This document shows, in pieces, positions 48 to 54,361 of a stretch of DNA of 64,000 nt; position 1 is the first letter of the stretch, and each line of letters opens with the position of its first letter. The notes beneath the pieces are model-generated. The model did no database searches. It was not told the origin of the DNA and saw only the letters and a list, made by a program, of their open reading frames with translations. A program made the translations under genes and the position numbers. Source of the stretch: Clostridia bacterium (GTDB lineage Bacteria > Bacillota > Clostridia > Christensenellales > CAAEEZ01); assembly GCA_900755035.1 (NCBI GenBank), contig CAAEEZ010000016.1, positions 89,058 to 153,057 of the forward strand, in the 5' to 3' direction.

Positions 48-59
48 TGCTTGTTTTAT

Positions 60-881: not shown

Positions 882-896
882 CGTATATTTTATTTT

Positions 897-1100: not shown

Positions 1101-1109
1101 ATCCGCCTC

Positions 1110-2222: not shown

Positions 2223-2240
2223 AAACCCTCCAAATAAGTA

Positions 2241-2270
2241 TAAAAAAAGACTGCACTTAATACAGTCTTG
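2241..2270 (-). terminator. Intrinsic terminator inside the 5' leader of the decarboxylase beta gene (candidate attenuator or riboswitch expression platform)
   Basis: Minus strand reads AAGACTG-TATTAAGTG-CAGTCTT followed by TTTTTTT. It ends about 20 nt before the SD/ATG of ORF 1110-2222 and about 185 nt after the ktrA stop. Confidence 0.5.
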
Positions 2271-2456
2271 TCATTTGAAACTAAACCGAAGGCAACGCCT
2301 CGTGATGACGGCTTAATTACGCTTTTAGCGTCGACTACTCCCTATATCGTCTTTTTTATATAACATAATAAAATTAGCATTTTTACACTAAAAAGTCAAC
2401 CTTGAAACAAACAAAATTTCCTTTTCGCCGTTAATTTCTTGGCTTAAAAATCTACG

Positions 2457-3140
2457 TTACGTTAGGTCGCCTATCTTTTTGGTAAACTTGGATATTAGTC
2501 CTAGTTCGCCACCGACAATAACGTAATCGCCGTTTTTAATAATCGTACTACCAGCAGGGTTAATTATTACGTCGTTCTCCCTTTTTACTATCAGTACGCT
2601 TACGCCGTATTTTTTACGTATATCTAGTTCTAGTAGGCTCTTTCCGCCCCAATCCGGTGGAAGTGCTATCTCGGCAAGCACGTAGCCTTGCGTTAGTTCC
2701 ATTACGTCGGATAGCCTTGGGCTAGTTAGCATAGTTGCTACTTTATGTCCTATTTCAGCCTCAGGAACAAGCACTTGGTCTGCGCCTATTTTCTCTAATA
2801 CCTTTTTGTGTTTGTCGTTTTTTGCCTTGCACACCACGAACAAACCTGCTTGTTTGCAAAGCATAGTGGTAAGGATACTTACTTCTAGGTTGTTAGAAGT
2901 ACAAATAATTGCCACTTCAAAGTTTCTTAGTCCTATCTTTTCTAGCACGCCTTCCTCGCTTGCATCGGCGATTATTGCGTGTGTGGAATAGTTTACCACT
3001 TCATTTATTTTTTCTTCGTCAATATCTATAGCAAGCACGTCCTTGCCTAGTTCGTACAAAGTTCTAGTAACTTCCATACCAAATCTACCCAGACCGACTA
3101 CTAAAAATTGCGAATAACTTTTTTCAAATATCTTAAACAT
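2457..3140 (-). CDS. ktrA: K+ uptake system, cytoplasmic RCK/NAD-binding subunit (KtrA/TrkA-N+C type)
   Basis: 227 aa. Rossmann motif VVGLGRFG, single RCK_N plus RCK_C length, directly downstream of ktrB. Confidence 0.9.
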   Translation of the reverse strand: MFKIFEKSYSQFLVVGLGRFGMEVTRTLYELGKDVLAIDIDEEKINEVVNYSTHAIIADASEEGVLEKIGLRNFEVAIICTSNNLEVSILTTMLCKQAGLFVVCKAKNDKHKKVLEKIGADQVLVPEAEIGHKVATMLTSPRLSDVMELTQGYVLAEIALPPDWGGKSLLELDIRKKYGVSVLIVKRENDVIINPAGSTIIKNGDYVIVGGELGLISKFTKKIGDLT

Positions 3141-3150
3141 ATTTTCTCCT

Positions 3151-4548: not shown

Positions 4549-5215
4549 TATCCCTCGTCCAACGAATTTCCTCTTTATTTTGGCTTTTCAAAATCTCGTT
4601 GGTTTTTATAAAATGTCCGCACCCAAAAAATCCACGATACGCAGATAACGGAGACGGATGCGCCGACGTTAGCGTGATATTGTCTTGTAAAAGTGCTTGC
4701 TTTTTAATAGCGTCCGCTCCCCACAACAAAAATATTACGCTTTTATCCTTTGCTATTTCCTCTATTATTCTATCGGTAAAAATTTCCCAGCCGTAGTTTT
4801 TGTGGGAATTTGCCTCGCCTTCTCTTACCGTTAGCGTTGCGTTTAATAGCAGTACACCCTGCTTTGCCAAATATTCAAGGTCGCCTACGGTATCTACCGT
4901 AGTTTCGTACTCGTCGGCAATTTCCTTGTATATATTTCTTAGGCTAGGCGGAAGTTTTACACCCTCTTTTACGCTAAACGCAAGCCCCGTTGCCTGCCCC
5001 TTTTCGTGATAAGGGTCTTGCCCTAGTATTACTACCTTTACCTTATCTTTTGGGGTGAGTTCTAACGCTCTCAATATGTTTTCGTAGGGTGGGAATACCG
5101 TTTTTTGTGAGTATTCCTCGTTTACCCTTTTTGCCAATTTTTCAAAGTACGGCTGACTCATTTCATTTTGTAAAAAATCTTCCCAGCCCGTACATTTTTT
5201 AATAAGCTCTTGCAA
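4538..5215 (-). CDS. ung: Uracil-DNA glycosylase (family 1)
   Basis: Catalytic motif VVILGQDPYH, GLAFSV and a C-terminal HPSPLS motif. TTG start at 5215 with GGTGA 7 nt upstream. Overlaps the proS stop by 17 nt. Confidence 0.93.
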   Translation of the reverse strand: MQELIKKCTGWEDFLQNEMSQPYFEKLAKRVNEEYSQKTVFPPYENILRALELTPKDKVKVVILGQDPYHEKGQATGLAFSVKEGVKLPPSLRNIYKEIADEYETTVDTVGDLEYLAKQGVLLLNATLTVREGEANSHKNYGWEIFTDRIIEEIAKDKSVIFLLWGADAIKKQALLQDNITLTSAHPSPLSAYRGFFGCGHFIKTNEILKSQNKEEIRWTRDNDR

Positions 5216-6641
5216 ATATCATCACCTTTTCTGCTTTTTTGCCACAAATTGGACATACGTCGCCAACAGGCGTTTGGTCAAACGGCATTACCCTTGAACT
5301 TGCGTTGGTCATTTCCTTTATCTTGTCTTCGCACGCTCTATCACCACACCACATCATTTTTGCAAAGTTGCCCGTCTCGACAGCATCTTTCAGCTCGTCC
5401 AAACTGTGAACTACTTTGATGTGGCTATGTAAAAAGTCGCTTGCTTTTTGGTAGATATTGTCGTGAATTTGGTCAAGTAAACTGCTGATAGTTTCGCCTA
5501 AACCGTCCATACTTGCCGTTATTTTCTCGTTTGTATCACGCCTTGCAAGTACTACTTGATTATTCTCTATATCTCTTGGTCCAACTTCTAATCTAATAGG
5601 AACGCCTTTCATTTCCCACTCGTTGAACTTCCAGCCGGTAGATGCGTCAGTTAGGTCGGTTTTTACCCTTATTCCTGCCGATTTCAACTCTTTTTCTAGT
5701 TCCTTAGCCTTGTCTATTACGCCGTCCTTATGCATAGCGATAGGCACTATAATTACTTGGATAGGAGCAACTCTTGGCGGAAGCACTAGTCCCCTTTGGT
5801 CGCCGTGAGCCATAATAAGCGCACCGATTAGCCTTGTTGTCGTGCCCCAACTTGTTTGGTAAGGCAATTTATGAGTACCGTCTTTATCCAAGAATTTAAT
5901 ATTGAACGCTTCGGCAAAGTTTTGTCCAAGGTCGTGCGACGTACCTGCTTGCAAACTTTTGCCATCTAGCATCATTGCTTCCATTGCGTAGGTTGCGTAT
6001 GCGCCTGCAAACTTCTCCTTTTCGCTCTTTCTGCCCGTAAGTACAGGCATTGCTAGTACGTTTTTCATAAATTCCTCGTATACGCCCAGCATTTTAAGAG
6101 CCTCTTCTTCTGCTTCTTCTTTTGTTGCGTGCACGGTATGACCTTCTTGCCACAAAAATTCCGACGTTCTTAAAAACGGTCTAGTCGTTTTTTCACAACG
6201 CATTACGTTTGCCCATTGATTTATTAAAAGAGGCAAATCTCTATAACTTTTTATCCACTTAGAGTACATTTCACAAATAATGGTCTCGGAAGTAGGTCTT
6301 ACTACTAATTTTTCCGAAAGTTCCTCTTCGCCAAAATGAGTGATTAAAGCAACTTCTGGCGCAAATCCTTCCACGTGCTCCTTTTCCCTAGTTAGAAAAC
6401 TGTACGGAATCAGCATAGGAAAATAAGCGTTTTCGTGTCCGGTCGCCTTTATCCTTTTGTCCATTTCCTCTTGTATCTTTTCCCAAATAGCGTAACCATA
6501 CGGGCGTATAACCATAGTGCCCTTTACTGGTCCGTAATCCACTAGCCCGGTCTTTATTACAACGTCGGTGTACCAACCTGGGAAATCCTTGTTAATGTCC
6601 GCTATTTCGCTTACGAATTGATTTTGATTTTTCTTAGCCAT
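5199..6641 (-). CDS. proS: Prolyl-tRNA synthetase (short, archaeal/eukaryote-like type with C-terminal Zn domain)
   Basis: 480 aa class II aaRS. N-terminus ...FPGWYTDVVIKTGLVDYGPVKGTMVIRPYGYAIWE and C-terminal CGDRACE...CPICGK are typical of this ProRS type. Confidence 0.93.
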   Translation of the reverse strand: MAKKNQNQFVSEIADINKDFPGWYTDVVIKTGLVDYGPVKGTMVIRPYGYAIWEKIQEEMDKRIKATGHENAYFPMLIPYSFLTREKEHVEGFAPEVALITHFGEEELSEKLVVRPTSETIICEMYSKWIKSYRDLPLLINQWANVMRCEKTTRPFLRTSEFLWQEGHTVHATKEEAEEEALKMLGVYEEFMKNVLAMPVLTGRKSEKEKFAGAYATYAMEAMMLDGKSLQAGTSHDLGQNFAEAFNIKFLDKDGTHKLPYQTSWGTTTRLIGALIMAHGDQRGLVLPPRVAPIQVIIVPIAMHKDGVIDKAKELEKELKSAGIRVKTDLTDASTGWKFNEWEMKGVPIRLEVGPRDIENNQVVLARRDTNEKITASMDGLGETISSLLDQIHDNIYQKASDFLHSHIKVVHSLDELKDAVETGNFAKMMWCGDRACEDKIKEMTNASSRVMPFDQTPVGDVCPICGKKAEKVMIFARAY

Positions 6642-7080
6642 ATAAAACCTCTATTTTTTTACTACGTATATTATATTACATCAAAAATATTATTGCAATT
6701 ATTTTGACTATTATATATTTATACTATATGTGTCTTGTTTACTTATCGTATCCTATATATTTTATCATTTATACAACTACTATCACTACAATGCTTATCA
6801 ATTTTAATATAACAAAATCTTACGAAAAATATAATTATAATAACTCCCGTTTTATATTATTTGTATTATTATCATCTTTAACCTATGCTATTACGCAATA
6901 CGCTTGGCTTCGTTTTCAAAATCATATATCTTTTACTTTTTTATATTGCTTTATCACTTACGCTTTATATTATTAAAAAATAAAACACACTAAACCCCTA
7001 ATAAATACTAGCATTTTTTATAATATCGGTACGTTTAATGGTATTAAATTAACCTACCCGTTATTTCCGTATCGTTTTAA

Positions 7081-7113
7081 TAAAAAACACGATACACAAA
7101 TTAGTGTACCGTG
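7081..7113 (-). terminator. Rho-independent terminator ending the glycan-utilisation operon
   Basis: Minus strand reads CACGGTACAC-TAATTT-GTGTATCGTG followed by TTTTTTA, 22 nt past the stop of ORF 7135-8070. Confidence 0.6.
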
Positions 7114-7134
7114 CTAGAAAGAGTGAGAAGTTGT

Positions 7135-8070
7135 TTATTCTACGTCAATAAAATTAGCAATTAATTCGTACGCAAATAATCTTCCTAATTCTATCATAGA
7201 CGATGAATCGTAGTGATAAATATCTGGCATTCCTGCCGGTTCGCCATTGTATTTTAGTCCATGCGCAATCGTATCGATAAAAATATGGCTTTGATTTTCT
7301 TGTGATAGTTTTTTCTTTGCTTCGTTAATCACTTTTTGCTGTGTCCAAGCAGGACAATCAGATATTCCGCCATCTACAAAACCAATTTCGCTATTAGCCG
7401 GTTTGTAATATGCCAAGTCTTTTCTTAAATCATTAACAAAATTTCTTTCTAATTTCTCATAAGAATTAAAGTTATTCCCACTTGAATCGTCCTCTCCTTG
7501 CATCCAGCATATCGCTTTTATTTCTGGATACAAATCCATTTGTTCTAATTTCTTACATTGTTCTAATACGTAATTTACTGCGTTCGTATACAATGAGCCC
7601 GTATTTTTGCTAGAAGGCGAACGCCATTGCGTAGTAAGCGAAGTTCCACCATACGCATATTTTATAACGTATACTTTCTTTTTGGAGTCTATTTTTGATA
7701 ATTGCTCTGCAATACCTATCTCTGGTCCAAATTGATTAACGGAGTGCCCTTGCCCTAATTTTATAGGTGTGAATTCTCCGTTGCTTGTATTATCGGCAAT
7801 TGTGCACGCATAACTTATATTTACGTTGTCATAGCCGTTTATATACTCTTTGGTTTTTTCCTCCCCCATCGTTTTAGACAAATATTTGCTCCACGTATGA
7901 CCTTCGGCATTGCTTTGTCCTAACAATACTATTACTTGTACTTCGTTTGAATACTCTTTTTGTGTTTCGATATTTTCATTCATATTATTACATCCCGAGC
8001 AAATTGCAACTAGTGCCGTTACTATTGCACACAATAACGCAATTTTTATTTTTTTCTTATTCATATACAA
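7135..8070 (-). CDS. Secreted lipoprotein, SASA/DUF303-type SGNH carbohydrate acetylesterase
   Basis: Signal peptide plus lipobox (LVAICSGC). Catalytic block VIVLLGQSNAEGH, GGTSL and a C-terminal HYD motif are typical of sialate-O-acetylesterase-like esterases. Confidence 0.75.
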   Translation of the reverse strand: MYMNKKKIKIALLCAIVTALVAICSGCNNMNENIETQKEYSNEVQVIVLLGQSNAEGHTWSKYLSKTMGEEKTKEYINGYDNVNISYACTIADNTSNGEFTPIKLGQGHSVNQFGPEIGIAEQLSKIDSKKKVYVIKYAYGGTSLTTQWRSPSSKNTGSLYTNAVNYVLEQCKKLEQMDLYPEIKAICWMQGEDDSSGNNFNSYEKLERNFVNDLRKDLAYYKPANSEIGFVDGGISDCPAWTQQKVINEAKKKLSQENQSHIFIDTIAHGLKYNGEPAGMPDIYHYDSSSMIELGRLFAYELIANFIDVE

Positions 8071-8935
8071 TCAGCTCCCCGTCCTTTATTTGCAAATAAT
8101 ATATTGCTGCACGCTCCTTTCCACAAAGACTATTATTTTCATGTAGTGCAATACGATATCTACCGTTAAAATCCTTAAACACCATAGCGTGCCCACAATC
8201 GTTATGTGGCATTTTTAATAATTTATGTATATACTTACCATCTAAAATACCACAATTCTGTTGTGGATAAACTACCCCCACGGAATATCCGTCCTCTTCT
8301 ATGGTAGACCAACTAGACCAAAGCATAAACTTTACGTTGTCAATTTCAAATACGTACGGGGCATCTACTACGAATATTGGCTCGTCGCCTTCGTGCCACT
8401 TTGGACTTTTTGCCCACTTAGATTCGCTTGCCTTAAACAAAACTTTCGTATCTGAAACGGGTTTTGACAAATCCTTTTCCAACTCTACTACGCACATTTC
8501 ACCGTCTTTCGTTTGCAACCATTCGTGAGAAAATATTGAGTACGGAGTATCGTTTTCTACGTAAAGCGTTGCGTCTAACGCATACCAATCCTGTGGCGCT
8601 AAGGGCGTACTATATCCTTTGAACGGACCTAATAGATTATCTGCTACTAGTATTTGCGACGTCCTTATTTTTTCGTCAGAACTAAACGTACCGAATAAAT
8701 AAAATTTATCGTTATATTTGTGCACCTCTGGCGCCCAAAAATCCTTTGTAGCCCAAAACTCGTCGTTTGCTTCAAATACCGTTTGAGGCAAACTCCATTC
8801 CTCTAAGTCCGTTGACGTATATACGCAAAAACCTTTAACTAAATTAGAAGGACTAGAAGAATACATATAATATTTTTTGCTTTTCTCGTCTGCATAAATA
8901 AACGGGTCTCTTACGTTAATCTCACGTAGCTTCAT
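8057..8935 (-). CDS. Cytoplasmic glycoside hydrolase family 43 (arabinofuranosidase/xylosidase-like)
   Basis: 292 aa with no signal peptide. N-terminal VRDPFIY plus WAPEVHKYNDKFYLF are five-bladed propeller GH43 signatures. The start overlaps the GH36 stop (ATGA). Confidence 0.8.
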   Translation of the reverse strand: MKLREINVRDPFIYADEKSKKYYMYSSSPSNLVKGFCVYTSTDLEEWSLPQTVFEANDEFWATKDFWAPEVHKYNDKFYLFGTFSSDEKIRTSQILVADNLLGPFKGYSTPLAPQDWYALDATLYVENDTPYSIFSHEWLQTKDGEMCVVELEKDLSKPVSDTKVLFKASESKWAKSPKWHEGDEPIFVVDAPYVFEIDNVKFMLWSSWSTIEEDGYSVGVVYPQQNCGILDGKYIHKLLKMPHNDCGHAMVFKDFNGRYRIALHENNSLCGKERAAIYYLQIKDGELIVYE

Positions 8936-11103
8936 TTTATTTCCTCCAAAACAACAAGTTGCGATTCAAACTCGTTTAACGTTTTCGACATATTTATACC
9001 CACTTCCATATAATAACTACCTTTGTAGGTTTTATTATCAAGACTATTTATATACTTCTTATTAGGGTTCAATCCTCGCAACTTTATAAACCTGCTTGCA
9101 CGCAATCTTTTAAGCAAATTAACCATTAAAAACAGGGCTTTTTCCTTATTTTTATCTACCATTATTATGCTAAATTCATTAGTTTCAAATGGCGACGACA
9201 ATCTAAACAAATCCCCTTTTAAGACTACGTCTCGATATTTTTTATAAATTTCGTTCGTAATTTTTATTTGCTCTATGTCTTTATCTGCAACTCTTCGAGG
9301 GTCTAATTCAAATCCGTACGAACCGAATAACGCTATTTCCGATTTGGTTTTATAAGAGGCAGTATCACATTCGTTTACGTGCGCTCCCATAACTGACGGC
9401 GGATATGCAAACGACGTTCCGTATTGAATAAACAATCTTTGAATAGGGTCGTTTTCATCGCTTGTCCATATTTCAGGAAAATAGAAAAGCGTTCCAAAGT
9501 CAAAACGTCCTCCACCACTAGCACAACCTTGAAAATGCACGTTTGCAAATCTCTTAGTTAGTCTATCGGCCAATTTATAATATCCAAGCGTATTTCTATG
9601 ATAAAATTCGTCTTGGTGCAAATAATCCAAATTATCGGCAAAATAGTCTTCCATCGTACGATTATGGTCCCATTTAATATAGTCTATTTCGTACCTAGAC
9701 AGAGTTGCCTCCAATACGTTATAAATATAGTCGACTACTTCGTCGTTTGCAAAATTGAGCATTACTTGATGCCTAGATAACCAAGGGTTACTTTTTACGT
9801 CAACGGCAGCGTATTCGGGGTGTTCTCTTAATAAATTAGAATCAAAATTAGCCATTTCAGGCTCTATCCAAATACCAAATTTCATTCCGTTTTTATGGCA
9901 CTCGTCAATAACCTTATTTAAGTTTATTTTTTCTTCGTTTACCTGCCAATCGCCAAGGGCCCTTTTATCGTCGCATCGATTACCAAACCACCCGTCGTCA
10001 AGCACAAATAACTCGGCACCCATTTTTTTGCCTTCCGTTATGAAATTCAATACCTTTTCGGTATTAAAATCCATATAGCAACCTTCCCACGAATTTAACA
10101 AAATAGACCGATACACGTCTTCGTTATTATCTATTACTATTCTTTCTCGTGTTAAATCGTGTAATTGATGACTAACTGATTCAAAACCATTTTTTCCGTA
10201 TACGATAAATCCTTCGGGAAATATAAACGATTCTTTACTCTTTACTTCGTATCTAAAATCGCCTATTCCTATATTTATTCTAGTTACCCCGACTTTGCCA
10301 ACGTTTACTTCGCATTTGAAAGCCCCCGAATACATAAACGATACTGCAAATACTTCACCGTTAGTTTCGGTTGCACTTGGATCGGCTAGCATTATAAAAG
10401 GATTGTGCTCGTGCGAACTGCGTCCCGTTTTAGAAGAAATAACCTTAGTTCCTTCCGTTATTCGTTCTCTCCTAAACTGCCTTTCAAATAGCCATTCCCC
10501 CGGGAAATGAATCAAATCGTAATTTGCACTAGCAAAATCTTGCGTTAGACTCATTGATTTCGTTAGCCATAAATTTTTATCCGTTCCATTAATAAATTTT
10601 GTATTACGTATTATTACGTTATAATTTTCAAAAATTGAAAGTGATAAAATTATAGTTACGTCTTTACTAAAATCTTTCGCCGTTATTTCTAGCGTCTCTG
10701 CCTCGCTTAAATCATCACGAATATACGGCATATCTACTAATTGTGGTTTACCTTTTAATATTTTGTGTGAAACGTAACGAAAATCTAATTTGTTATTTTC
10801 TAAACCGTCAATCTTTACGAAAGAAGGTCTTACGTCTGCGGCACGATATGATGGCAAAAGCATTTTAGATGCATTCAAATACAAATTTTCATATTTTTTC
10901 TCGGCTTTTTCTTCGTAATCGTAATAATTAGAAAACCAATCTTCTCCACCTATTACGCTAATTTGGTCCAAATCAATATCGTCTAAATACGAACCAAAAT
11001 ACGGGCAAGTTATCGCTTTGCTTTCGTGTATATGTACGTAATATGAAAATTCGCTATTGTATAAATGAAATAAATTCCTGTCTTTGAAAAATTTAATTGC
11101 CAT
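8932..11103 (-). CDS. Alpha-galactosidase, GH36
   Basis: 723 aa. Motifs FVLDDGWF, IDYIKWDHNR and CASGGGRFD are GH36 catalytic signatures. Confidence 0.9.
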   Translation of the reverse strand: MAIKFFKDRNLFHLYNSEFSYYVHIHESKAITCPYFGSYLDDIDLDQISVIGGEDWFSNYYDYEEKAEKKYENLYLNASKMLLPSYRAADVRPSFVKIDGLENNKLDFRYVSHKILKGKPQLVDMPYIRDDLSEAETLEITAKDFSKDVTIILSLSIFENYNVIIRNTKFINGTDKNLWLTKSMSLTQDFASANYDLIHFPGEWLFERQFRRERITEGTKVISSKTGRSSHEHNPFIMLADPSATETNGEVFAVSFMYSGAFKCEVNVGKVGVTRINIGIGDFRYEVKSKESFIFPEGFIVYGKNGFESVSHQLHDLTRERIVIDNNEDVYRSILLNSWEGCYMDFNTEKVLNFITEGKKMGAELFVLDDGWFGNRCDDKRALGDWQVNEEKINLNKVIDECHKNGMKFGIWIEPEMANFDSNLLREHPEYAAVDVKSNPWLSRHQVMLNFANDEVVDYIYNVLEATLSRYEIDYIKWDHNRTMEDYFADNLDYLHQDEFYHRNTLGYYKLADRLTKRFANVHFQGCASGGGRFDFGTLFYFPEIWTSDENDPIQRLFIQYGTSFAYPPSVMGAHVNECDTASYKTKSEIALFGSYGFELDPRRVADKDIEQIKITNEIYKKYRDVVLKGDLFRLSSPFETNEFSIIMVDKNKEKALFLMVNLLKRLRASRFIKLRGLNPNKKYINSLDNKTYKGSYYMEVGINMSKTLNEFESQLVVLEEIK

Positions 11104-11123
11104 ATTATTACCTATTTGATTTC

Positions 11124-11149
11124 GGGGAAGAAGCCTTTACTTCTTCCCT
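11124..11149 (-). other. Perfect 9-bp GC-rich intra-operon hairpin without a U-tract
   Basis: GGGAAGAAG-CCTTTA-CTTCTTCCC lies between the stop of ORF 11170-12894 and the GH36 start. No T-run follows on either strand. Confidence 0.5.
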
Positions 11150-11169
11150 AAAATCAACGTTTTATTTAA

Positions 11170-12894
11170 CTATTTGATTACGATATTACTAATAGTACAG
11201 TCTAAATCACGACACAAAAAACTTATGGACGCTCTTCCAAAATAACCGTCGTTATTCCAGCCCCACGTTCCTTCGAACAATACGTTGTCTTGGCTATCTT
11301 TTACGGTTAGTTTGTTGTCTTGTCCCGTTTCGGTCATAAGACGAGTTACCGTGATTTTATAAGTAGCACCTTCTTCTAATCTAGCAGTTTCACCATTAAG
11401 TTTGTAATATCTATCCTCTTGCGCAGGTGCTCCTATTCCCGGATTTAAGTCGCCGTTAGAATTCCAGCCCGTCCAGCCTGCTTGATATTGTCCAACTAGA
11501 AGAGAACGTGCCTCTGCATATTTTTCATCATATCTATTCATAGTGATAGCAAGAGCAGGTAAAGCATCTCTACTACCTATACAATCAATCGTCAAGTCAA
11601 ACGACATACTTCCTTCCACGTTTGCTGCAAAAACAGCATTAGTACCAATATGTTTTGCTGCGTGGTCTTTTGCGTTAAGCGGTGAAGTTTGGTCTTTTGC
11701 ACCCGTGAACTTTATGGTATCGTTTTCAATAATTACTTTATCGCTTGACGCATAAAATTTTGATGCGTCGGCAGTTTCTAAAAATTCGGTTACTGCTTGC
11801 TCGCCATAACTTACTTGCATATTTGTATATTCTGCCGAGCAACTACCTAGATTAAGTACCGGGATAGTATCTACGTCGGTAAATTCTTCCAAACCGTCTT
11901 CGCTATAATATAATTCGTCGTTAATGTAAGCAGAAAAATTGTTTCCATTTCTCACCGTCGTAAGTTTTACACTTTCAAAATTTATATTACCTACTCCGTG
12001 TTGATTCCACGATTGCGAACGGTCGGTTATAGTTCCCCACTCTACGTTACCCGAGTTAATTACCATAGTTACCGTTTTACGAGCATTATAGTTTGGCCCT
12101 GGGGATAGTTGCAATCCGTAATATTTTGCTCCGTTATAATGCGAAATGCCTACTCTTGACCAAGTGTCGTTTGCATCAGGGTTAGTCACCTTTACGGTTG
12201 CACTAGCCACGTAATACTTAGACGCCTCTCCGTTGAACGCAGCAAAAGAATTACGATTGCCGTTACTCTTTAATACGGCGTTATCTTGATAAAGCCCCGT
12301 CATATCAAAGTCGTCTGCATTTACCTTCGTATCGATTACGGTATCTTTTACCGTTATAGTTATGCTTTTAGTCGTTTTGCCAACGGTTGCCGAAATAGTA
12401 GTAGTTCCAGCACTTATTGCCGTAACTAATCCGTCTTTATTTACAGAGGCAACGTTCTCGTTTTCCGACTTCCAAGTAAGTAAAGCGTCTAACGGCGTTT
12501 GTGTTGCAGTTAATTGAAGGGTTTTTGTAGGATAAATTGTTGCGTTATCCACTTTACCCAACTCTACTTCGCACGGTTTTACCGTTATGACTAACTTATC
12601 TTTTTCCTTATCGTTTACTTTTATGCTAATTGTAGTTTTGCCTTGGTTTAATCCCGTTACTAATCCGTCTTGACTTACGGTAGCAACGCTTTCGTCCGAC
12701 GAAAACCATACTTCTTTTTGCGTTGTAGTATTTTTAACGCCTAGTTGCAAGGTTAGTCCTTCGTAAACTTCCGTTATGCTTTTATCTATAATTTTCACTA
12801 CTTCTTCGTTTGTAGTTTGATTACAACCAGAAAAAACAAATGCAAATGAAGTAATTAGAAGTACCATTATCGTAATTAAAGATTTCTTTCTCAT
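11170..12894 (-). CDS. Surface lipoprotein: 2x Big_2 (Ig-like) domains plus two C-terminal beta-sandwich (ConA/LamG-like) regions
   Basis: Lipobox FVFSGC. Two Big_2-type repeats (...LTLQLGV...WFSSDESVATVSQDGLVTGLNQGKTTISI...; ...LQLTAT...WKSENENVASVNKDGLVTAISAGTTTISA...). Paralogous to ORF 12910-14736. Confidence 0.75.
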   Translation of the reverse strand: MRKKSLITIMVLLITSFAFVFSGCNQTTNEEVVKIIDKSITEVYEGLTLQLGVKNTTTQKEVWFSSDESVATVSQDGLVTGLNQGKTTISIKVNDKEKDKLVITVKPCEVELGKVDNATIYPTKTLQLTATQTPLDALLTWKSENENVASVNKDGLVTAISAGTTTISATVGKTTKSITITVKDTVIDTKVNADDFDMTGLYQDNAVLKSNGNRNSFAAFNGEASKYYVASATVKVTNPDANDTWSRVGISHYNGAKYYGLQLSPGPNYNARKTVTMVINSGNVEWGTITDRSQSWNQHGVGNINFESVKLTTVRNGNNFSAYINDELYYSEDGLEEFTDVDTIPVLNLGSCSAEYTNMQVSYGEQAVTEFLETADASKFYASSDKVIIENDTIKFTGAKDQTSPLNAKDHAAKHIGTNAVFAANVEGSMSFDLTIDCIGSRDALPALAITMNRYDEKYAEARSLLVGQYQAGWTGWNSNGDLNPGIGAPAQEDRYYKLNGETARLEEGATYKITVTRLMTETGQDNKLTVKDSQDNVLFEGTWGWNNDGYFGRASISFLCRDLDCTISNIVIK

Positions 12895-41017: not shown

Positions 41018-42376
41018 ATGATAAATATAAATAGTCTTTGGACGGAAACATTACAAGAATTATCCACCAAAATGCTAGCAGTCAGCTACGAAGTATGGAT
41101 AGAAAAATTAAAACCATTATTTATTTATAATTCGCAACTCGTTTTAGTTGCGCCAAATCCAAGCGCAAAAAAATTAGTCATTAAAGAATATCAAGACACA
41201 ATAAATAAGGCGCTAGAAAAGGTAAACAAAACTATAAAAGGCGCTATTATCATTATCGAAGACGAAAAAGATAACTACAATCAAGACGAAGAGGTTGCCG
41301 TAAGTCAAGTTGAAAATGAAAAAGAATCTAACGACGACGGCTTTACTCCGTTTACCAAAAAATATACGTTTGATAATTTCGTCGTTGGTAAATCAAACGA
41401 ATTTGCTGCGGCAGCAGGTATTGCAGTTAGCGAAAACCCGGGCGAACAATACAACCCACTATTTATTTACGGTGGCGTTGGGCTTGGTAAAACGCACCTT
41501 ATGCACGCAATAGGCAATAAAATTAGAAAAACTAAGCCTTCGCTAAAAGTGAGATATATCACGTGCGAAACTTTCGTAAACGAATTCGTTGATTCTATAA
41601 AACAAAAAGCAAACACCAACGCAATGCGTGATTTTAACGAAAAATATCGTAGCGTTGACGTACTTATGATAGACGATATTCAGTTTATTGCAGGTAAACC
41701 CGGTTTTCAAGAAGGTATTTTCCATACCTTTAACGACCTATACCAAAACAACAAACAAATTATACTTACGTCCGATAGACCTCCAAAAGAGATAAACCCT
41801 CTTGAAGAAAGGCTAAGAACTAGGTTTGAGTGGGGACTTATAGTCGATATACAACCACCTGACCTTGAAACGAGAATTGCTATTTTGTCTAAAAAGGCAG
41901 AGCAACAAAATAAAGTATATTCGCTAGAATTACTTACTTTTATTGCTCAAAAAGTAGATAGCAATATTCGTGAAATGGAAGGGCTACTTTCAAGGGTAAT
42001 ATTCTACTCTGACCTAATTAAAAAGGATGCAACGATAAGTATTGCCGAAGAGGCGCTTCGTGATTACGTAGATACTAAAAAAGAAACTATAACGGCGTAC
42101 GACATAATAAATACCACGTGCAATTACTTTGGAATTACAAGCGACGACATAAAGGGTAAAAAAAGAAATAAAAACTTTATTATTCCTCGCCAAATTGCAA
42201 TCTATTTAATTACCGACCTACTTAATTTACCACTCGTTTCAATAGGCGAACTATTTGGCGGAAGAGACCATACGACAGTTATTCACGCAAGGGATAAAAT
42301 AGCCGAACAAATAAAAGTAGACACTAAACTAAAACTACAAGTAAGCGATATAAAAGATATGATATACAAACGTTAG
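41018..42376 (+). CDS. dnaA: Chromosomal replication initiator DnaA
   Basis: 452 aa. Motifs NPLFIYGGVGLGKTHLMHAIGN and DVLMIDDIQF, plus the C-terminal DNA-binding domain ...GGRDHTTVIHARDKI. Confidence 0.97.
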   Translation: MININSLWTETLQELSTKMLAVSYEVWIEKLKPLFIYNSQLVLVAPNPSAKKLVIKEYQDTINKALEKVNKTIKGAIIIIEDEKDNYNQDEEVAVSQVENEKESNDDGFTPFTKKYTFDNFVVGKSNEFAAAAGIAVSENPGEQYNPLFIYGGVGLGKTHLMHAIGNKIRKTKPSLKVRYITCETFVNEFVDSIKQKANTNAMRDFNEKYRSVDVLMIDDIQFIAGKPGFQEGIFHTFNDLYQNNKQIILTSDRPPKEINPLEERLRTRFEWGLIVDIQPPDLETRIAILSKKAEQQNKVYSLELLTFIAQKVDSNIREMEGLLSRVIFYSDLIKKDATISIAEEALRDYVDTKKETITAYDIINTTCNYFGITSDDIKGKKRNKNFIIPRQIAIYLITDLLNLPLVSIGELFGGRDHTTVIHARDKIAEQIKVDTKLKLQVSDIKDMIYKR

Positions 42377-42560
42377 TGGATAAGTTTTTTGAAATATGGA
42401 CAACTTGTGAAAAACTAACAAAAGTTATCCACACCATAAAATACTACTACTTGTATATAAATTTGGACTGACGTCTATATTTAGTATAAAATAAAAGTTA
42501 TCCACTTTATCCACAGTATTATTATTAGAACAATTATCTAAACAATATATATAACACGAA
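42375..42560. other. oriC-type module in the dnaA-dnaN spacer: four DnaA boxes, a trinucleotide run and an AT-rich unwinding tract
   Basis: Perfect TTATCCACA at 42425-42433 and 42507-42515. TTATCCACT at 42498-42506, directly abutting the latter box. AGTGGATAA (the inverted orientation, one mismatch) at 42375-42383. A TAT-TAT-TAT-TAG run at 42517-42528 is followed by an AT-rich stretch extending to the dnaN SD. Confidence 0.7.
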
Positions 42561-46046: not shown

Positions 46047-46949
46047 TTAGACTTCTCTATTTATATCCTTTCTAAGTTTTTCGATTATGTCGTAGATACG
46101 TTGCAAATCGTCCTCGTTGTAATAATCTATGTAAATTCTACCTTTTTGGTTGTTTCCAAGTGCTTTTACTTTCGTTCCAAAAATACGCTTCATATCGTTT
46201 ATAAGTTCCTTAACTTCCTTCGATTGAGCCTCTTTTTTTCTTGGTCCTTGCGGAATAAGTTTCCTATTAAAGAAAAGTTTTACCTGGGTTTCAAGTTGGC
46301 GAACACTCATTTTATTATCAGCGGCTTGCTCTGCAAGTTTTACTTGGAAAGCCTTGTCGTCAACTACTACTAGCGCCCTTGCGTGGCCTGCTGATAGTCT
46401 ACCCTCTCTTACCATATCAATTACAGGTTTTTCAAGGGTTAGTAGACGTAAAGTATTAGTAATTCCCGGTCTACTTTTGCCTATTTTAGACGCAACTTGC
46501 TCTTGGGTAAGGTTGTGGCTAACCATTAGTTCTTGAATAGCCTCAGCCGCTTCTATTGGGTTTAAGTCCTCCCTTTGCAAGTTTTCGATAAGCGCAATTT
46601 CTTGTACTTCTTGGTTGGTCAGTTCTTTAATTACGGCAGGAACGACGGTTAGACCTGCAAGTTTTGCTGCTCTAAACCTTCTTTCGCCCGCAATTATTAG
46701 ATATCTTTCGCCCGTTTGAAGAAGAATAAGCGGTTGGATAATGCCGTAATGCTTAATAGACTCCGCCAAATCTTTAAGGGCGTCCTCGTCAAAATATTTT
46801 CTTGGTTGGTTAGGGTTGGTATCTATCAAATTGATATCAACGTCGTCTAATTGTTTTTTAATAATGGTTTTGGTTTCGATAAAGTCGTCGTCTAAAATGT
46901 CGCTAAATAATGCGTTAAGACCTTTTCCTAGTGGATTTTTTTCAGACAT
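46047..46949 (-). CDS. parB: Chromosome partitioning protein ParB/Spo0J
   Basis: 300 aa. Motifs NPNQPRKYFDEDALKDLAESIKHYGIIQPL and the GERRFRAAKLAG box, followed by an HTH. Confidence 0.95.
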   Translation of the reverse strand: MSEKNPLGKGLNALFSDILDDDFIETKTIIKKQLDDVDINLIDTNPNQPRKYFDEDALKDLAESIKHYGIIQPLILLQTGERYLIIAGERRFRAAKLAGLTVVPAVIKELTNQEVQEIALIENLQREDLNPIEAAEAIQELMVSHNLTQEQVASKIGKSRPGITNTLRLLTLEKPVIDMVREGRLSAGHARALVVVDDKAFQVKLAEQAADNKMSVRQLETQVKLFFNRKLIPQGPRKKEAQSKEVKELINDMKRIFGTKVKALGNNQKGRIYIDYYNEDDLQRIYDIIEKLRKDINREV

Positions 46950-46957: not shown

Positions 46958-47737
46958 TCAGTTTTTTGCTTGACGTTTAATAAATTCTATAGTTAGTTTA
47001 GTATAAGCAATAGCACCGTTGCAAGATTTATCGTACACTACGATAGGTTTTCCGTAACTTGGCGCTTCTGCTAGTTTTACGTTTCGTGGAATTTTGGTTT
47101 CGTACACAACGTTGCCGAAGAATTTTCGTATTTCGTCTTCTACTTGGAAAGAAAGTTTCGACCTACTGTCGAACATAGTTAGTACAACTCCCTCTATTTC
47201 CAAATCTTTGTTAAGGAATTTTTTAACTATACGAACGGTATTTATCAGTTGCGACAAACCTTCAAGCGCATAAAATTCGCATTGAATAGGAATTATTAGT
47301 GAATCGCTTGCGGTAAGAGAGTTTAACGTAAGTAGTCCAAGAGAAGGCGGACAATCCAAAACTATGTAGTCGAACATATCTTTTACAGGGGCAATTTTTT
47401 GTTTTAAGATTTTCTCTCTGCCCTTTTCTATTCCTGCAAGTTCTATTTCAGCGCCCGCTAGGTCTATATTAGAAGGCAAAATAGACAAATTAGGAACGGA
47501 AGTTTCCTGTAAAACGCCGTCGTCTAAAATAGATTTGTCAGTACATAATAAATTGTATACCGAGAAGGAATTTTTGGATTTTTTTGCGCCAAGACCACTA
47601 CTTGCGTTGCCTTGTGGGTCCATGTCGATTAAAAGAACCTTTTTACCTGCAATAGCAAGGTATGCAGCAACGTTTACGCAGGTAGTCGTTTTACCAACGC
47701 CACCTTTTTGGTTGGTGAAAGTGATAATTTTTCCCAT
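46958..47737 (-). CDS. parA: Chromosome partitioning ATPase ParA/Soj
   Basis: 259 aa. Deviant Walker A NQKGGVGKTTT, plus DMDPQGNAS and DCPPSL. Confidence 0.95.
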   Translation of the reverse strand: MGKIITFTNQKGGVGKTTTCVNVAAYLAIAGKKVLLIDMDPQGNASSGLGAKKSKNSFSVYNLLCTDKSILDDGVLQETSVPNLSILPSNIDLAGAEIELAGIEKGREKILKQKIAPVKDMFDYIVLDCPPSLGLLTLNSLTASDSLIIPIQCEFYALEGLSQLINTVRIVKKFLNKDLEIEGVVLTMFDSRSKLSFQVEDEIRKFFGNVVYETKIPRNVKLAEAPSYGKPIVVYDKSCNGAIAYTKLTIEFIKRQAKN

Positions 47738-49792: not shown

Positions 49793-49941
49793 TACTAAAA
49801 GTTAGGTTATTTGCAAAGTTAAAAAAAGTTTTATTGAAAAAAACTTGTAAATTGCAAATATAATTTTACAATAATAATATAAGAAACAATTTTAGAAACG
49901 CAAGACGCTAATTAAAACTAAATATAAGTAAAAATACAATT

Positions 49942-49967
49942 AAAGACTACTTTCGTGGTCTTTTTTT
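49942..49967 (+). terminator. Intrinsic terminator downstream of luxS
   Basis: AAAGACTAC-TTTC-GTGGTCTTT followed by TTTT (one G-U pair). Confidence 0.6.
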
Positions 49968-49992
49968 GTTTTTAATTTACACGAAGCGTAAT

Positions 49993-50012
49993 ATATTTGC
50001 TAATTATAATTA
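49993..50012. repeat. 20-nt direct repeat, copy 1 (contains the 12-bp palindrome TAATTATAATTA)
   Basis: ATATTTGCTAATTATAATTA is identical to 52276-52295, and both copies are preceded by GTAAT. Confidence 0.8.
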
Positions 50013-50528
50013 GAAAAAAATAAATAAAATTTTCAAGGAGCAGTTAAATAAACGAATAAAACAAGGGGATAGTGTCTTGGTTTAACGTGAATATAGGTAT
50101 GGTTTAGCGTAAAGTAATGAATAAATACACGAAAAGGTGTATATTAATTCTTTGCATTGAGAATATTATTAAACGTTTTCCAAACAACGTATCTAATATA
50201 GACGTTTGGCTGTGAAAAATGCTTAAAATATCCTAAAATCGTATAAAAGTGCATCAAAATTAGCAAAATTGCAGCAATTTTTAATATTTTATTGTATTGT
50301 GAAACAAATATATAAAAATATGCAAAAAAAGTATATAAATACAAAAATTTATTAAAAAACACGAATAATATTAGTATTTTTATTAAAAAATATGCATTTT
50401 TATTAAATATATGAATATTTGTTAATTTGTTAAACATTTTCCATAATTTTTTCAATGAGCAAAACAGCAAAAAATTAATAAAAATTTTCAAGGAGCAAAA
50501 TCGGTTATTTATTTTGCATACCAAAATA

Positions 50529-50609
50529 ATGTATAAAACATACGATAATATACATAAATACGGTAAAATATACATATATTATGTATAAAATAAGAAAATA
50601 TACATATAT
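50529..50609. repeat. Iteron-like cluster of the heptamer TATACAT/ATGTATA
   Basis: AAAATATACATATAT at 50565-50579 and 50595-50609 (30-bp spacing). AATATACATA also at 50547-50556. The inverted form ATGTATAAAA lies at 50529-50538 and 50581-50590. Confidence 0.6.
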
Positions 50610-50620
50610 AATGAATAGAT

Positions 50621-50636
50621 TGTTTAACGTGAAACG
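50621..50636. promoter_or_regulatory. parS-like site (14/16 match to TGTTNCACGTGAAACA)
   Basis: TGTTTAACGTGAAACG. Confidence 0.5.
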
Positions 50637-50653
50637 ATCGAGCGATGGGGCGT

Positions 50654-50669
50654 TGTTCCATGTGAAACA
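50654..50669. promoter_or_regulatory. parS site (15/16)
   Basis: TGTTCCATGTGAAACA. Confidence 0.7.
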
Positions 50670-50722
50670 TATGCTTTTTGATTATGAAAACAATTAATAG
50701 TAAGTTAGATAAAAGCTTATAT

Positions 50723-50738
50723 TGTTCCACGTGAAACA
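50723..50738. promoter_or_regulatory. parS site (perfect consensus)
   Basis: TGTTCCACGTGAAACA is a perfect 16-bp palindrome, identical to the Firmicutes Spo0J/ParB consensus. Confidence 0.85.
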
Positions 50739-50835
50739 ATTATATAAAATATATAAAAATTAAGATTAAATTAAATAAAATTATTAGTGAAAGATTGAAT
50801 AACCTATAATATAAATTTGAAAAAGAATAAAAATT

Positions 50836-50876
50836 TGTGGATAAGTTAATAATATTGTGGATAAAAATGTGGATAA
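50836..50876. promoter_or_regulatory. Cluster of three perfect, co-oriented DnaA boxes
   Basis: TGTGGATAA (complement of TTATCCACA) at 50836-50844, 50856-50864 and 50868-50876. Confidence 0.8.
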
Positions 50877-52275
50877 TAAGAAAATTGTAACATTGGGAAA
50901 ATAAAATTAAAGCTAAAAATAAGAATAAATACAAAAAATAATACACACGAATAATAAGACCAAAGGAATAAAATAATAAAATATTGCGTGTTTGGTAGAA
51001 CGTATGTGAAAAAGTACAAAAAGTATTATAATTGTAAATAAATCAAGGAATTTTGTAATGCAAATATATTTTGATACGGTTTGGTAATAAGTTTGAAATT
51101 ATAAATACGTTTACGTCTTGTTTCTTCCAGAAAGAGAAGCAAAATACTTAATCGTTTGTAATTAGATGTTTAATTTTATAAATATATGTAGTTAATTGTA
51201 AAATAAAGCATATTAGTGAAGGAAAATACGTATAAAGTGTGTAAGTAATATCAAAATGCAGATGTTCAAATAACATAGAAACGTTTATAAAAAAGTAAAT
51301 ATGTTCTGTTGGTCAATGCAAAGATAAGAACGTACAGCGGTCGAAGAATAGTTATAAGAAAATTAAAAGGGTGTATATTTATGCTATATGGTGCTTTATT
51401 GTATATATAAATGGCGTAAATATGCAAAAGGAGGTATATATATTCAATACGGAAGGTGCTTCGGGTAGTAGTTACGTTGCGACCAAAAGACCTAATAGAT
51501 ATCGAAGAACCAAAGTTAATTATATGTTGATATATAAAATGATTTGTTCTGGTGGAATAGTGTTTAGATTAGTATAGGATAAGCTTATTAAAAGGCTGGG
51601 TAATAAACTTTACAAATTTTTGCAGTTTGTTTGTATTTTATTAGATTTTTAGTATATTCGCTATAATAACGTCAAAAAGGTATAAATATATTTATTAGGC
51701 ATCATAAAATATTTCAATTTATATATTTAACTATATATAATAACCAAAAAATAACAAAAATGAATAATTTTATCCTGTTCGAGTATAAAAAATCACGTAG
51801 TTGAAGATTTTTAAGTTACAAATTTTAGAATTTTTAATTTTAAGATTATATTTTTATTAAATAATTTACTTTTACATTGGAAAAAAATTAGTAAATTGTA
51901 TCATTAAGGAATAATTGGTATTTTTTATAATAATATATAGTTTTTTTAATAATTTGATGCCTAAATTATAAATTTTATTTAGTAATTTAATAAAATAATT
52001 AGTAAAATTTTATCCAAAAATATGGATATCTAAATTAAAATGAATTATTTAGAATTTATTTATAAATTATTAAAGATTTTATATTTAATATCTAAAAAAT
52101 TGATTATAAAAATAAATATAATTGAAAGATTTAATTGGTTAGATTTTCTTTATATATTAGTGATTTTTATTTTTTTGATATCCAAAGTTATTATATAAAG
52201 AATTTTTTAATCGCTAGTTTTATTCCTGTTTTTATTGCAACGTATAGCATCTTAATTATATATATGCAAATTGTA

Positions 52276-52295
52276 ATATTTGCTAATTATAATTA
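52276..52295. repeat. 20-nt direct repeat, copy 2
   Basis: ATATTTGCTAATTATAATTA is identical to 49993-50012, 2283 bp away. Confidence 0.8.
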
Positions 52296-52444
52296 TCAAA
52301 AATGAATATATATAAATATTTCCTTAAATATTTTAATTAAAAATGTATAAATATGCAATATTATTTATATTATAAAAAATAATAAATTTGTTATTTAATG
52401 AAATTTTTTTGTATATTTGGGGCTTATCTAAAGATAAAAAGTAG

Positions 52445-52472
52445 TTGACAATAACGATAATTGGGGTATAAT
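52445..52472 (+). promoter_or_regulatory. Full-consensus sigma-70 promoter driving the zeta-like gene through a ~235-nt AT-rich leader
   Basis: TTGACA (52445-52450), 16 nt spacer, TATAAT (52467-52472). Confidence 0.6.
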
Positions 52473-52718
52473 AAAGGTAGGTAGTAGTTCGATTGAACGT
52501 TTTACCGTTTGTATATTTTTAGATTTATTTATAAAGTTTTTGTTAAAAATTCATATTGCAAAGAAGAAGTTGATTTTAGTTTTTGTATTTATTTTAAGTT
52601 TTGATTAGGTTTATTGATTTTATTTTAATTTAATTTTTTATTTATTTCCAAATAATCGTTTGTAATTTGTGTAGCATATTTCAAAATTTTATAATTTTTA
52701 TTTTTAAGGAGTTACATT

Positions 52719-53894
52719 ATGGCATTGTTTGACAAATCTTATTTAGACAAAGAAAGGGACGTTGTGGTATTTGAAGTAGATAAGGAAAAACTTGAAGACG
52801 TAAGCGAAGAGAGTTACAAAGACGGCATTGTAGGGGCTCTGATTGGCGACCTTATAGATAAGTTCCCAAATAAAGAGGGCGAACTTTTAGACGTTGTTAG
52901 CAATATGAATAAACGTAAATACGACGACCCTAAGGACGCAGAAAATACCTTAATCCTAAAAGGTATCAATCATTTTGCAGAACAATTATTTATGGCGCTG
53001 AAAGATAATAAAGTAACAAGCGCATATACGATGGACGAATTTGAAACTACGAAGCAAGCACTATTAAATAAGGCAATAGACGATGATAACGTGCACGAAG
53101 TGGAAAATCCAAAGTTGGTGTTTGTTGGTGGACAAATGGGGGTTGAAAAGGAATATGCGATAAAAAAGATATTTGACACCCTTAACGGAAACGCAATCTT
53201 GGTGGATAAAAACGAATATATTAAATATCACCCGAATTATGAATATTTTGATGATAATGCAGACTTTTGGGATATTGTTGACGAGGATTGGGCTTGCGAA
53301 TTGGAGATTGCCATAAACGACGTGCTGTCGAAAAAGAAATATAACGTAGTTATTGTAGATGCATTAAGTAATTTTTGCAAAAATCAAAGAATTATAGACC
53401 AATACGGAACGGGTTTTGAGATATTGGTATTCGTAGATGCAATAAAACCAGATATCTCAAAGATAAATTTAATATCAAAATACGCTGAAAACAAGCAAAA
53501 AGGAAGGCCTGCTAGAAATTACTCGCTAGATATGCACGATTTCGAAGTGGCGTCGTTACCGTACTCGATAGGGCTACTTGCTAAGTCCAAAGAAGTGAGC
53601 AATGTGTTTATTATCAATAGCCAATTAGAAACAATATATGAAAAAGCGGTGGGTGGCAGTAATGCCGAAAAATTCTTAAAAAAAGTGTTTCACGAGCCTT
53701 TAACCGAGCAGGAAATAGAAAAATTAAAAACGACGTGTATGAACAGTATACTACCTTACCTTCCGGTTTGCAACAAAACCTATCCGCACTTAAACTTTGT
53801 GAGCGAGTTGTATAGAAAGTTTATAGAGATAGAAAAGAGAGGGAAAAAATTGAGCAAAAAGAATAGACGTAACGCTTATCGTGTTAAGAAATAA
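52719..53894 (+). CDS. Zeta-toxin-fold (P-loop kinase-like) protein with degenerate catalytic motifs and a ~130-aa N-terminal extension
   Basis: 391 aa, with AAGGAG 7 nt before the ATG. Residues ~130-310 align by eye with zeta/PezT: GGQMGVEKE vs GGQPGSGKT; GNAILVDKNEYIKYHPNY vs GNVIVIDNDTFKQQHPNF; KYNVVIVDALS vs GYNLVIEGTGR; GFEILVFVDAIKP vs GYETKMYVMAVP. Confidence 0.65.
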   Translation: MALFDKSYLDKERDVVVFEVDKEKLEDVSEESYKDGIVGALIGDLIDKFPNKEGELLDVVSNMNKRKYDDPKDAENTLILKGINHFAEQLFMALKDNKVTSAYTMDEFETTKQALLNKAIDDDNVHEVENPKLVFVGGQMGVEKEYAIKKIFDTLNGNAILVDKNEYIKYHPNYEYFDDNADFWDIVDEDWACELEIAINDVLSKKKYNVVIVDALSNFCKNQRIIDQYGTGFEILVFVDAIKPDISKINLISKYAENKQKGRPARNYSLDMHDFEVASLPYSIGLLAKSKEVSNVFIINSQLETIYEKAVGGSNAEKFLKKVFHEPLTEQEIEKLKTTCMNSILPYLPVCNKTYPHLNFVSELYRKFIEIEKRGKKLSKKNRRNAYRVKK

Positions 53895-53965
53895 AAATTT
53901 AGTAAAAGCAGATAAAAATGTAACGCAACTATATCAAGAAATAAAAGGAAGAGAGGTAAAAGGGT

Positions 53966-54361
53966 ATGATTATAATAGAAGAACATTACGCACAAGGGGA
54001 CGGACCAACAGTACAAGAGTTAAGAGCAATGGAAAGAGCAGAGAGAATGAAAACAGAACCCGAGAACGTAGTGATTTTGGGCAAGTGGGGAACGCAAGCA
54101 CTAGAAATGATGGAAGATAGCAACAACGAACTGTATACGAAACTAAAACAAGAGATGAAGTTAGTGCCGTTCCTATTAGACCTGAATGAAACATGCTTGC
54201 AGCAATACAGGAAGATGAAAGAGAAAATGTGGCCAAAAGCGACGGGCGACTTTTTGACGGATTGGCAGAACAGAGAGGCAATGGTGAGAACGATAGACGA
54301 GATACTACTGAACGATATAATAATACCACAAGTGATGCAAGGCAAAGAATTGGATTATTAA
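53966..54361 (+). CDS. TnpV-like small protein (mobile-element-associated family)
   Basis: 131 aa, with GAGAGG/AAAGGG before the ATG. The pattern ILGKWGTQALEMMEDSNNELYTKLKQEMKLVPFLLDLNETCLQQY... resembles the LGKYGxxALxYLKExxPxxYxxLxxxGxLxxxLxEvD core of clostridial TnpV proteins as I recall them. Confidence 0.5.
   Translation: MIIIEEHYAQGDGPTVQELRAMERAERMKTEPENVVILGKWGTQALEMMEDSNNELYTKLKQEMKLVPFLLDLNETCLQQYRKMKEKMWPKATGDFLTDWQNREAMVRTIDEILLNDIIIPQVMQGKELDY

Follow-up and report, generated by a model that had tools for sequence, protein, structure and literature searches.

A likely chromosome centromere with attached DnaA boxes, some 8 kb from dnaA, in the rearranged origin region of an uncultured gut Clostridia bacterium

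Within the window (the whole stretch of 64,000 nucleotides analysed here), the segment at 50.5–50.9 kb is probably the centromere of the chromosome, with DnaA boxes attached to it, and unwinding of the origin would take place 8 kb away, in the spacer between dnaA and dnaN. The host is an uncultured human-gut Clostridia/Christensenellaceae-like bacterium whose origin region is rearranged. Three options had been put forward for this segment in the original prediction: the displaced half of a bipartite oriC, a hub for ParB loading and DnaA titration, or the real unwinding origin. Among these, a ParB-loading hub carrying DnaA boxes fits best, its parS triplet being found clade-wide, and the real origin is not borne out; the displaced half is discussed below with the evidence that bears on it. 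All the motifs listed in the original prediction are present where it put them, and far more than chance would give. The features concerned are collected in Table 1.

Table 1. Gene blocks, replication and partition genes, and motifs of the origin region (positions are those of the 64-kb window).
Feature	Position	Strand	Remarks
Block 1: gyrA, gyrB, recF		-	
Block 2: dnaA, dnaN		+	
Block 3: 166-aa ORF, tRNA-Glu, LRR protein, parB, parA, rsmG		-	
Block 4: mtnN, luxS		+	
Block 5: non-coding		none	2.9 kb, about 20% G+C; contains the motif cluster
Block 6: zeta-toxin-like gene, TnpV-like gene		+	
Block 7: rpmH, rnpA, yidD, yidC, jag, mnmE, mnmG		+	
dnaA	41018–42376	+	TIGR00362, 526.6 bits; expected binder of the boxes
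Probable unwinding origin (oriC2-like), dnaA-dnaN spacer	42375–42530	+	Five DnaA boxes
Unwinding candidate 1	42425–42433; 42441–42455		Perfect box, 7-bp spacer, then ATA CTA CTA CTT GTA
Unwinding candidate 2	42498–42515; 42516–42527		Tandem boxes TTATCCACtTTATCCACA, then GTA TTA TTA TTA and AT-rich DNA
parB	46047–46949	-	TIGR00180 (ParB), 187.5 bits
parA	46958–47737	-	ParA families
TTTTC(A/G)AGGAGCA copy 1	50030–50042	+	Motif search of window and relatives
TTTTC(A/G)AGGAGCA copy 2	50449–50461	+	1 mismatch; invariant alignment block
TTTTC(A/G)AGGAGCA copy 3	50485–50497	+	Exact; 36 bp from copy 2; invariant alignment block
TATACAT/ATGTATA phased inverted repeats	50526–50620	none	Abut parS1
parS1 TGTTTAACGTGAAACG	50621–50636	none	2 mismatches; position conserved in relatives
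parS2 TGTTCCATGTGAAACA	50654–50669	none	1 mismatch; 33 bp after parS1
parS3 TGTTCCACGTGAAACA	50723–50738	none	Perfect match
parS3-to-box spacer	50739–50835	none	97 bp, 9% G+C
Three DnaA boxes (TTATCCACA on the - strand)	50836–50844; 50856–50864; 50868–50876	-	Perfect match
Relaxed DnaA box TTTTTCACA	51005–51013	-	Fits TTWTNCACA

The gene order from dnaA to the cluster is as originally described (dnaN, a 166-aa ORF, tRNA-Glu, an LRR protein gene, parB, parA, rsmG, mtnN and luxS), and the distance of about 8 kb proved accurate, with 8.46 kb between the dnaA stop codon and the first box; rpmH lies 4 kb from the cluster. Compared with the classical Firmicute order, the region at 35081–60511 is scrambled, dnaA-dnaN being directed away from recF-gyrB-gyrA, and rsmG-parA-parB is inverted and detached from mnmG. 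Relatives (designated here by L numbers) have rearrangements of their own in the origin region: parAB is inverted in L013 and L014, dnaA and dnaN are convergent in L019–L021, and parB has no adjacent parA in L017 and L018, where mtnN and luxS are moreover fused into one 390-aa gene (6483–7655 in both L017 and L018).

The DNA of the cluster can indeed be taken as non-coding. The sole overlapping ORF (50144–50575, - strand) has no family match and is left uncalled in most strain assemblies; on both counts, we treated it as spurious. No RNA family turned up in the luxS-rpmH spacer when the window, and separately 49.7–54.9 kb, was scanned with Rfam. In a scan for promoters and terminators, luxS was seen to have a terminator and both the zeta-toxin-like gene and rpmH a strong promoter, with no signal that could be assigned to the motif module.

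The luxS-rpmH spacer itself (49793–52718) is exceptionally long, measuring 2.9 kb in this genome and 5.4 kb or more in the sister species, and it is poor in G+C (12–30% in the window at the same positions, in L011 at 1–5431 and in L014 at 6342–11500). It shows a strong excess of G over C toward rpmH (skew of +0.35 here); in L011, whose strand is reversed, the skew is -0.35 over positions 1–3723, and individual 400-bp segments reach -0.59. The public assemblies L005–L008 break inside this spacer. Between the cluster and rpmH (52445–54361) stand a zeta-toxin-like gene (391 aa) and a TnpV-like ORF; the former has a perfect TTGACA-16-TATAAT promoter (52445–52472), and no antitoxin gene is evident. 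This pair is absent from L015 and probably represents a species-level insertion.

The reading as a centromere starts from the parS sites. A scan of the whole window for the 16-bp palindrome TGTTNCACGTGAAACA, allowing up to 3 mismatches, returned the three parS-type palindromes reported in the original prediction, with the match qualities given there, as the sole matches in 64 kb; parS2 is even perfect in strain L004. ParB is canonical, with the motifs GERRFRAA (the CTP-binding GxxRxxA) and ENLQRE, and parB and parA are located 3.6–4.7 kb from the triplet. The segment thus has what is expected of a ParABS centromere (consensus palindromes, cognate ParB and ParA nearby, an origin-proximal position, conservation in relatives), and since a canonical ParB and a ParA encoded about 4 kb away go together with a conserved parS triplet, a centromere is the plain reading. 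At 50079–50094, 540 bp upstream of the triplet, lies a degenerate remnant of parS type, GTTTAACGTGAA, which repeats part of the parS1 sequence exactly.

The three perfect DnaA boxes are present as announced, reading TGTGGATAA on the + strand, their starts separated by 20 and 12 bp, and they make up three of the nine perfect boxes in the window. Together with the relaxed box, they form a cluster of boxes, one of the features of an oriC. The AT-rich spacer between parS3 and the first box resembles an unwinding element, a resemblance that is non-discriminating since the whole 3-kb region has about 20% G+C.

Relatives were gathered through ParB homologues and the contigs that carry them; a DnaA search of genome contigs returned two loci only. 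At ParB identities between 94% and about 58%, these relatives share the gene neighbourhood and a long stretch of non-coding DNA beside luxS/mtnN, and every relative examined has a parS array in the AT-rich spacer on the luxS/mtnN side, with a pair in a 32–33 bp register and usually a third site. Seven strain-level contigs retain the motifs despite intervening indels; within the genus, the parS flanks, the TATACAT repeats and the TTTTC(A/G)AGGAGCA motif are conserved as well. An insertion of about 490 bp in the sister species (L011, 3849–4353) separates parS3 from parS1-parS2 and leaves the 33-bp pair intact; the triplet, therefore, tolerates splitting.

Conservation in close relatives, which the original prediction named among its tests, is thus clade-wide for parS; as for the DnaA boxes, they are conserved in the sister species and missing from L015 and L014. 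The sister species has three boxes after parS3 with a 19/12-bp spacing, in flanks that are barely alignable, and this retention of the spacing despite diverged flanks argues for selection on the boxes. L015 and L014, which share the gene order of the window and are nearer relatives than the L017/L025 group, possess the parS triplet and have no DnaA box (up to 1 mismatch) in the spacer; the boxes are, thus, not generally required, and any role they have would be lineage-specific. Boxes in the same orientation reappear interleaved with parS in L017, L025, L044 and L128: one box fits into the 17 bp that separate the two sites of the parS pair (parS-2 bp-box-5 bp-parS, in L025/L044/L128 and in the L017 group), and another follows 14 bp after the third parS. 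In L019, two boxes lie between parS sites. L025 also has, at 1555–1869, a promoter-like TTGACA...TATAAT and the start of a 104-aa ORF about 40 bp past the last DnaA box, so that the boxes of this group could also affect transcription.

A survey of metagenomes puts this arrangement in perspective. The statement in the original prediction that parS sites are usually scattered singly has to be given up, as tandem arrays are common: a tandem parS pair in the 32–33 bp register occurs at at least 120 metagenome loci, in genomes of 33–74% G+C. Among the loci listed, these pairs are mostly found upstream of parA or beside rsmG/mnmG, in arrays of up to 14 sites. The large arrays beside rsmG/parA comprise 11–14 sites in 1–3 kb (L039, 1306–2157; L121, 3183–4023; L123, 244–3108). 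Among the 9 loci listed with a luxS/mtnN context, 7 have three DnaA boxes no more than 150 bp away from the parS pair, the seven being close relatives and, thus, non-independent counts; two or more boxes within 150 bp were found in 1 of the 111 loci listed with other contexts. DnaA boxes beside parS are a rarity overall, nearly restricted to this clade of gut Clostridia, in which they recur.

Could the cluster be the origin itself, or a second active one, with DnaA oligomerising from the boxes into the 97-bp spacer toward parS3? Several of its features would suit this idea, namely, the three perfect boxes with a tandem pair 3 bp apart, the adjoining spacer with its 9% G+C, and the long non-coding region beside rpmH; moreover, the dnaA-dnaN boxes are degenerate in the L017 group, where boxes are found among the parS sites instead. 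The tandem pair followed by ATA TTA TTA and an AT-rich stretch would also pass a loose pattern for a basal unwinding system (BUS, as defined in PMC8287927). These triplets, however, obey the loose NAN rule only and none is of the 3'-GAT-5' type that a DnaA-dependent origin is expected to have 0–16 bp after its boxes, whereas the dnaA-dnaN spacer offers CTA CTA CTT as well as conserved TTA repeats after tandem boxes; the absence of the boxes from L015 and L014 also speaks against an origin at the cluster.

The dnaA-dnaN spacer contains two candidate sites for unwinding (Table 1), of which candidate 2 only is conserved beyond the sister species. Its layout, tandem boxes followed by TTA repeats, is found across relatives, and it keeps its place directly upstream of dnaN in those whose dnaA and dnaN converge. 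In both candidates, the orientation and the pattern are those of the BUS and of the trio in oriC2 of Clostridioides difficile, 5'-CACCTACTACTATTACTACTATGA (PMC7561715). From this architecture, unwinding probably occurs in the dnaA-dnaN spacer.

Nucleotide skew points to the same place. We modelled the GC skew of each gene, over all codon positions, as the sum of a strand term and a replichore term. The best switch falls at 42–45 kb, with a residual of 132–137 vs. 218 at 50–53 kb; in bootstraps, 42.5 kb beats 50.7 kb in 97.9% and the best point lies at 41–45 kb in 99.5%, 50.7 kb being the best switch in 5 of 2000. One has to keep in mind that this discrimination between 42.5 and 50.7 kb rests on about eight genes between the candidate sites and that skew records history rather than present firing. 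In this model, parB, parA and rsmG have the skew of head-on genes of the right replichore, and mtnN and luxS that of co-directional genes of the right replichore in three species (the window, L011 and L015). L013, where parAB is inverted, fits as well, and the skew of L021 flips at dnaA/dnaN, not at its own parS array. Non-coding DNA has a skew of the same sign on the two sides of the cluster (+0.146 on the left and +0.351 on the right). The raw cumulative GC skew of the window reaches its minimum at 40–42 kb and then stays level as far as 48 kb. GC skew at third codon positions and TA skew were too noisy to locate the switch, and the skew of L017 and L020 was too weak to be used. Given a switch at 41–45 kb and none at the cluster, flanks of the same sign around it, mtnN and luxS behaving as right-replichore genes and a trio architecture upstream of dnaN, we regard the proposal that the cluster is the real unwinding origin as unsupported, and an active origin there, whether the main or a second one, as unlikely.

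With unwinding probably located between dnaA and dnaN, the boxes beside parS might still be a displaced oriC1 half that remains required: an 8-kb DnaA-DnaA loop, perhaps aided by ParB/SMC compaction, would then enable unwinding in the dnaA-dnaN spacer, although we know of no precedent for an 8-kb separation of the halves of a bipartite oriC. The cluster does lie on the rpmH side, the place of oriC1 in classical Firmicutes, and the sister species keeps the boxes and their spacing. No DnaA boxes are present in the 116 bp between recF and dnaA, so the parS-side cluster would be the sole candidate if an oriC1-type cluster were needed; in C. difficile, unwinding in vitro does need both halves (PMC7561715). 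However, the cluster is separated from rpmH by 4 kb and from dnaA by 8.5 kb, it comprises only 3–4 boxes vs. 9–19 in clostridial oriC1 (PMC7561715), L015 and L014 do without any box at the same gene order, and the dnaA-dnaN spacer alone has 5–7 boxes. A half that is still required is, thus, rather unlikely; an oriC1 half may nevertheless be what the boxes derive from in evolution.

The five TATACAT/ATGTATA copies that were reported next to the triplet are all present, at 50529 (-), 50549 (+), 50569 (+), 50581 (-) and 50599 (+). They represent 5 of the 14 copies of the window within 77 bp (50529–50605); the total is what chance would give (14 vs. 14.5 expected), and the non-randomness is in the local clustering only. 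They are part of two longer repeats, a 27-nt unit with copies 30 bp apart and a 35-nt unit with copies 50 bp apart. These repeats are conserved in the sister species and in L015, weaker in L014 and absent from L017. They are likely sites for a dimeric DNA-binding protein or bent DNA. We also considered weak DnaA boxes, Spo0A boxes and cop-box-like operators, and the sequence fits none of them.

The description of these heptamers as iteron-like does not stand, because they are inverted 7-mers and not direct iterons of 17–22 bp. This bears on a further explanation, in which the module would be what is left of a plasmid or mobile element that had integrated, with iterons and a partition site. Short repeats do adjoin parS, the surroundings are AT-rich, and genes of the Zeta_toxin and TnpV families are found 1.8–3.5 kb downstream. 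On the other hand, the module lacks what defines an iteron-type plasmid origin (no tandem direct iterons, no rep gene, no similarity to any of 72,556 plasmids), the parS sites fit the chromosomal consensus, and the same chromosomal position is occupied in a relative that has neither the zeta-toxin nor the TnpV gene (L015). Such an integrated replicon is scarcely credible, and we dropped the idea for want of plasmid similarity.

A second short motif, TTTTC(A/G)AGGAGCA(A), was found in the window, L010/L011, L014 and L015, with 1–3 copies per locus in a constant orientation and on the luxS side of the parS triplet only. Copies in relatives are located at 20086, 20618 and 20653 in L010, at 6282 and 6329 (- strand) in L015 and at 8094 in L014; there is no copy elsewhere in the window or in the compared loci. 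We know of no factor that binds this motif.

To return to the centromere with attached DnaA boxes, what the sequence shows directly is the motifs and how far they are conserved, the course of the skew, and genes for a canonical ParB, ParA and DnaA; the steps that follow (protein binding, ParB spreading, the role of the boxes) are inferred. From what is known of the protein families, ParB-CTP clamps would load at the three parS sites, spread across the origin-proximal region, recruit SMC and be moved by ParA. DnaA would bind the three head-to-tail boxes 97 bp beyond parS3, as their perfect consensus suggests. The strands would be opened for replication at a distance of 8 kb, where the dnaA-dnaN spacer keeps tandem boxes, a DnaA-trio and AT-rich DNA. 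As for the boxes at the centromere, their most likely role is to link DnaA with ParB/ParA, or to buffer these activities, rather than to fire the origin. They could do so by titrating DnaA, by hindering the sliding of ParB or partnering it, or, if they are what remains of an oriC1, by contacting the origin through a loop. A bolder version, which we put forward tentatively and as a possibility only, is that centromere and initiator are wired in cis in this clade, with DnaA and ParB competing or cooperating on the same 150 bp. If so, DnaA occupancy would gate ParB loading or sliding, or ParB would gate the supply of DnaA to the origin, and the locus would be a compact device coupling replication and segregation, of a kind undescribed in Firmicute-like bacteria.

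The coordination of replication start with segregation is known in detail for a few model species only. This locus is a compact, sequence-defined case, with perfect boxes and tandem parS sites in the scrambled origin region of an abundant uncultured gut lineage, and it is amenable to testing with purified DnaA and ParB. It also has a practical side: programs that predict origins from clusters of DnaA boxes in AT-rich non-coding DNA would probably miscall the origin here, and estimates of growth from metagenomic peak-to-trough ratios depend on the origin that is assumed.

We found no literature on replication origins in Christensenellaceae. DnaA-box clusters outside the origin are known as datA in E. 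coli and as the DBCs in B. subtilis. Like them, a small cluster of high-affinity boxes some kilobases away could titrate or regulate DnaA; unlike the cluster described here, they are not joined to parS. Tandem parS arrays are known from actinobacterial parS clusters, and another example is the parS1-4 cluster near the origin of P. aeruginosa (PMC4368675). The likeness with such arrays, whether upstream of parAB or on the rsmG/mnmG side, is in several close parS sites near the origin; the array described here is, however, not upstream of parA but in a 3-kb non-coding luxS-rpmH spacer, and DnaA boxes are almost absent from the other arrays.

Bipartite origins, as in Bacillus subtilis, C. difficile and Helicobacter pylori (oriC1 between rpmH and dnaA, oriC2 between dnaA and dnaN), likewise have two box clusters. 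The dnaA-dnaN spacer of the window, with tandem boxes, trios and AT-rich DNA, is as in C. difficile oriC2, and the other cluster is again on the rpmH side. The two clusters are, however, 8.3 kb and eight genes apart here, whereas only dnaA separates them there, and the rpmH-side cluster is reduced to 3–4 boxes, fused to a parS triplet and dispensable in some relatives.

An initiator bound at a centromere, which joins segregation with replication control, is found in Vibrio cholerae chromosome II, where the centromere site parS2-B/rctA beside ori2 binds the initiator of the replicon (PMC3688505, PMC6399470). This initiator is RctB and not DnaA, and the replicon is a secondary chromosome of plasmid ancestry. 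The secondary replicons of Deinococcus are another case of an initiator at a centromere.

The nearest known system is that of Caulobacter crescentus, whose parS region, about 8 kb from the origin, contains DnaA boxes bound through domain IV of DnaA (Mera, Kalogeraki and Shapiro 2014, as reported in PMC6399470 and PMC6667618). The statement that no such arrangement is known to be described, therefore, needs correcting, since that work already places DnaA boxes within a centromere about 8 kb from an origin. As in Caulobacter, where this links the initiator to the centromere, the boxes here abut parS (97 bp away, or inside the pair in L025/L044/L128) and lie 8.3 kb from the dnaA-dnaN spacer. They differ in that Caulobacter belongs to another phylum, that the boxes here are perfect and head-to-tail, or inside the parS pair in relatives, and that a polar-anchoring context (PopZ) is not expected here. 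The parS-box cluster also stands apart from the known systems as a whole in that neither parAB nor dnaA adjoins the long AT-rich spacer that contains it. By analogy, it can be regarded as the Firmicute-like counterpart of the DnaA-bound centromere of Caulobacter.
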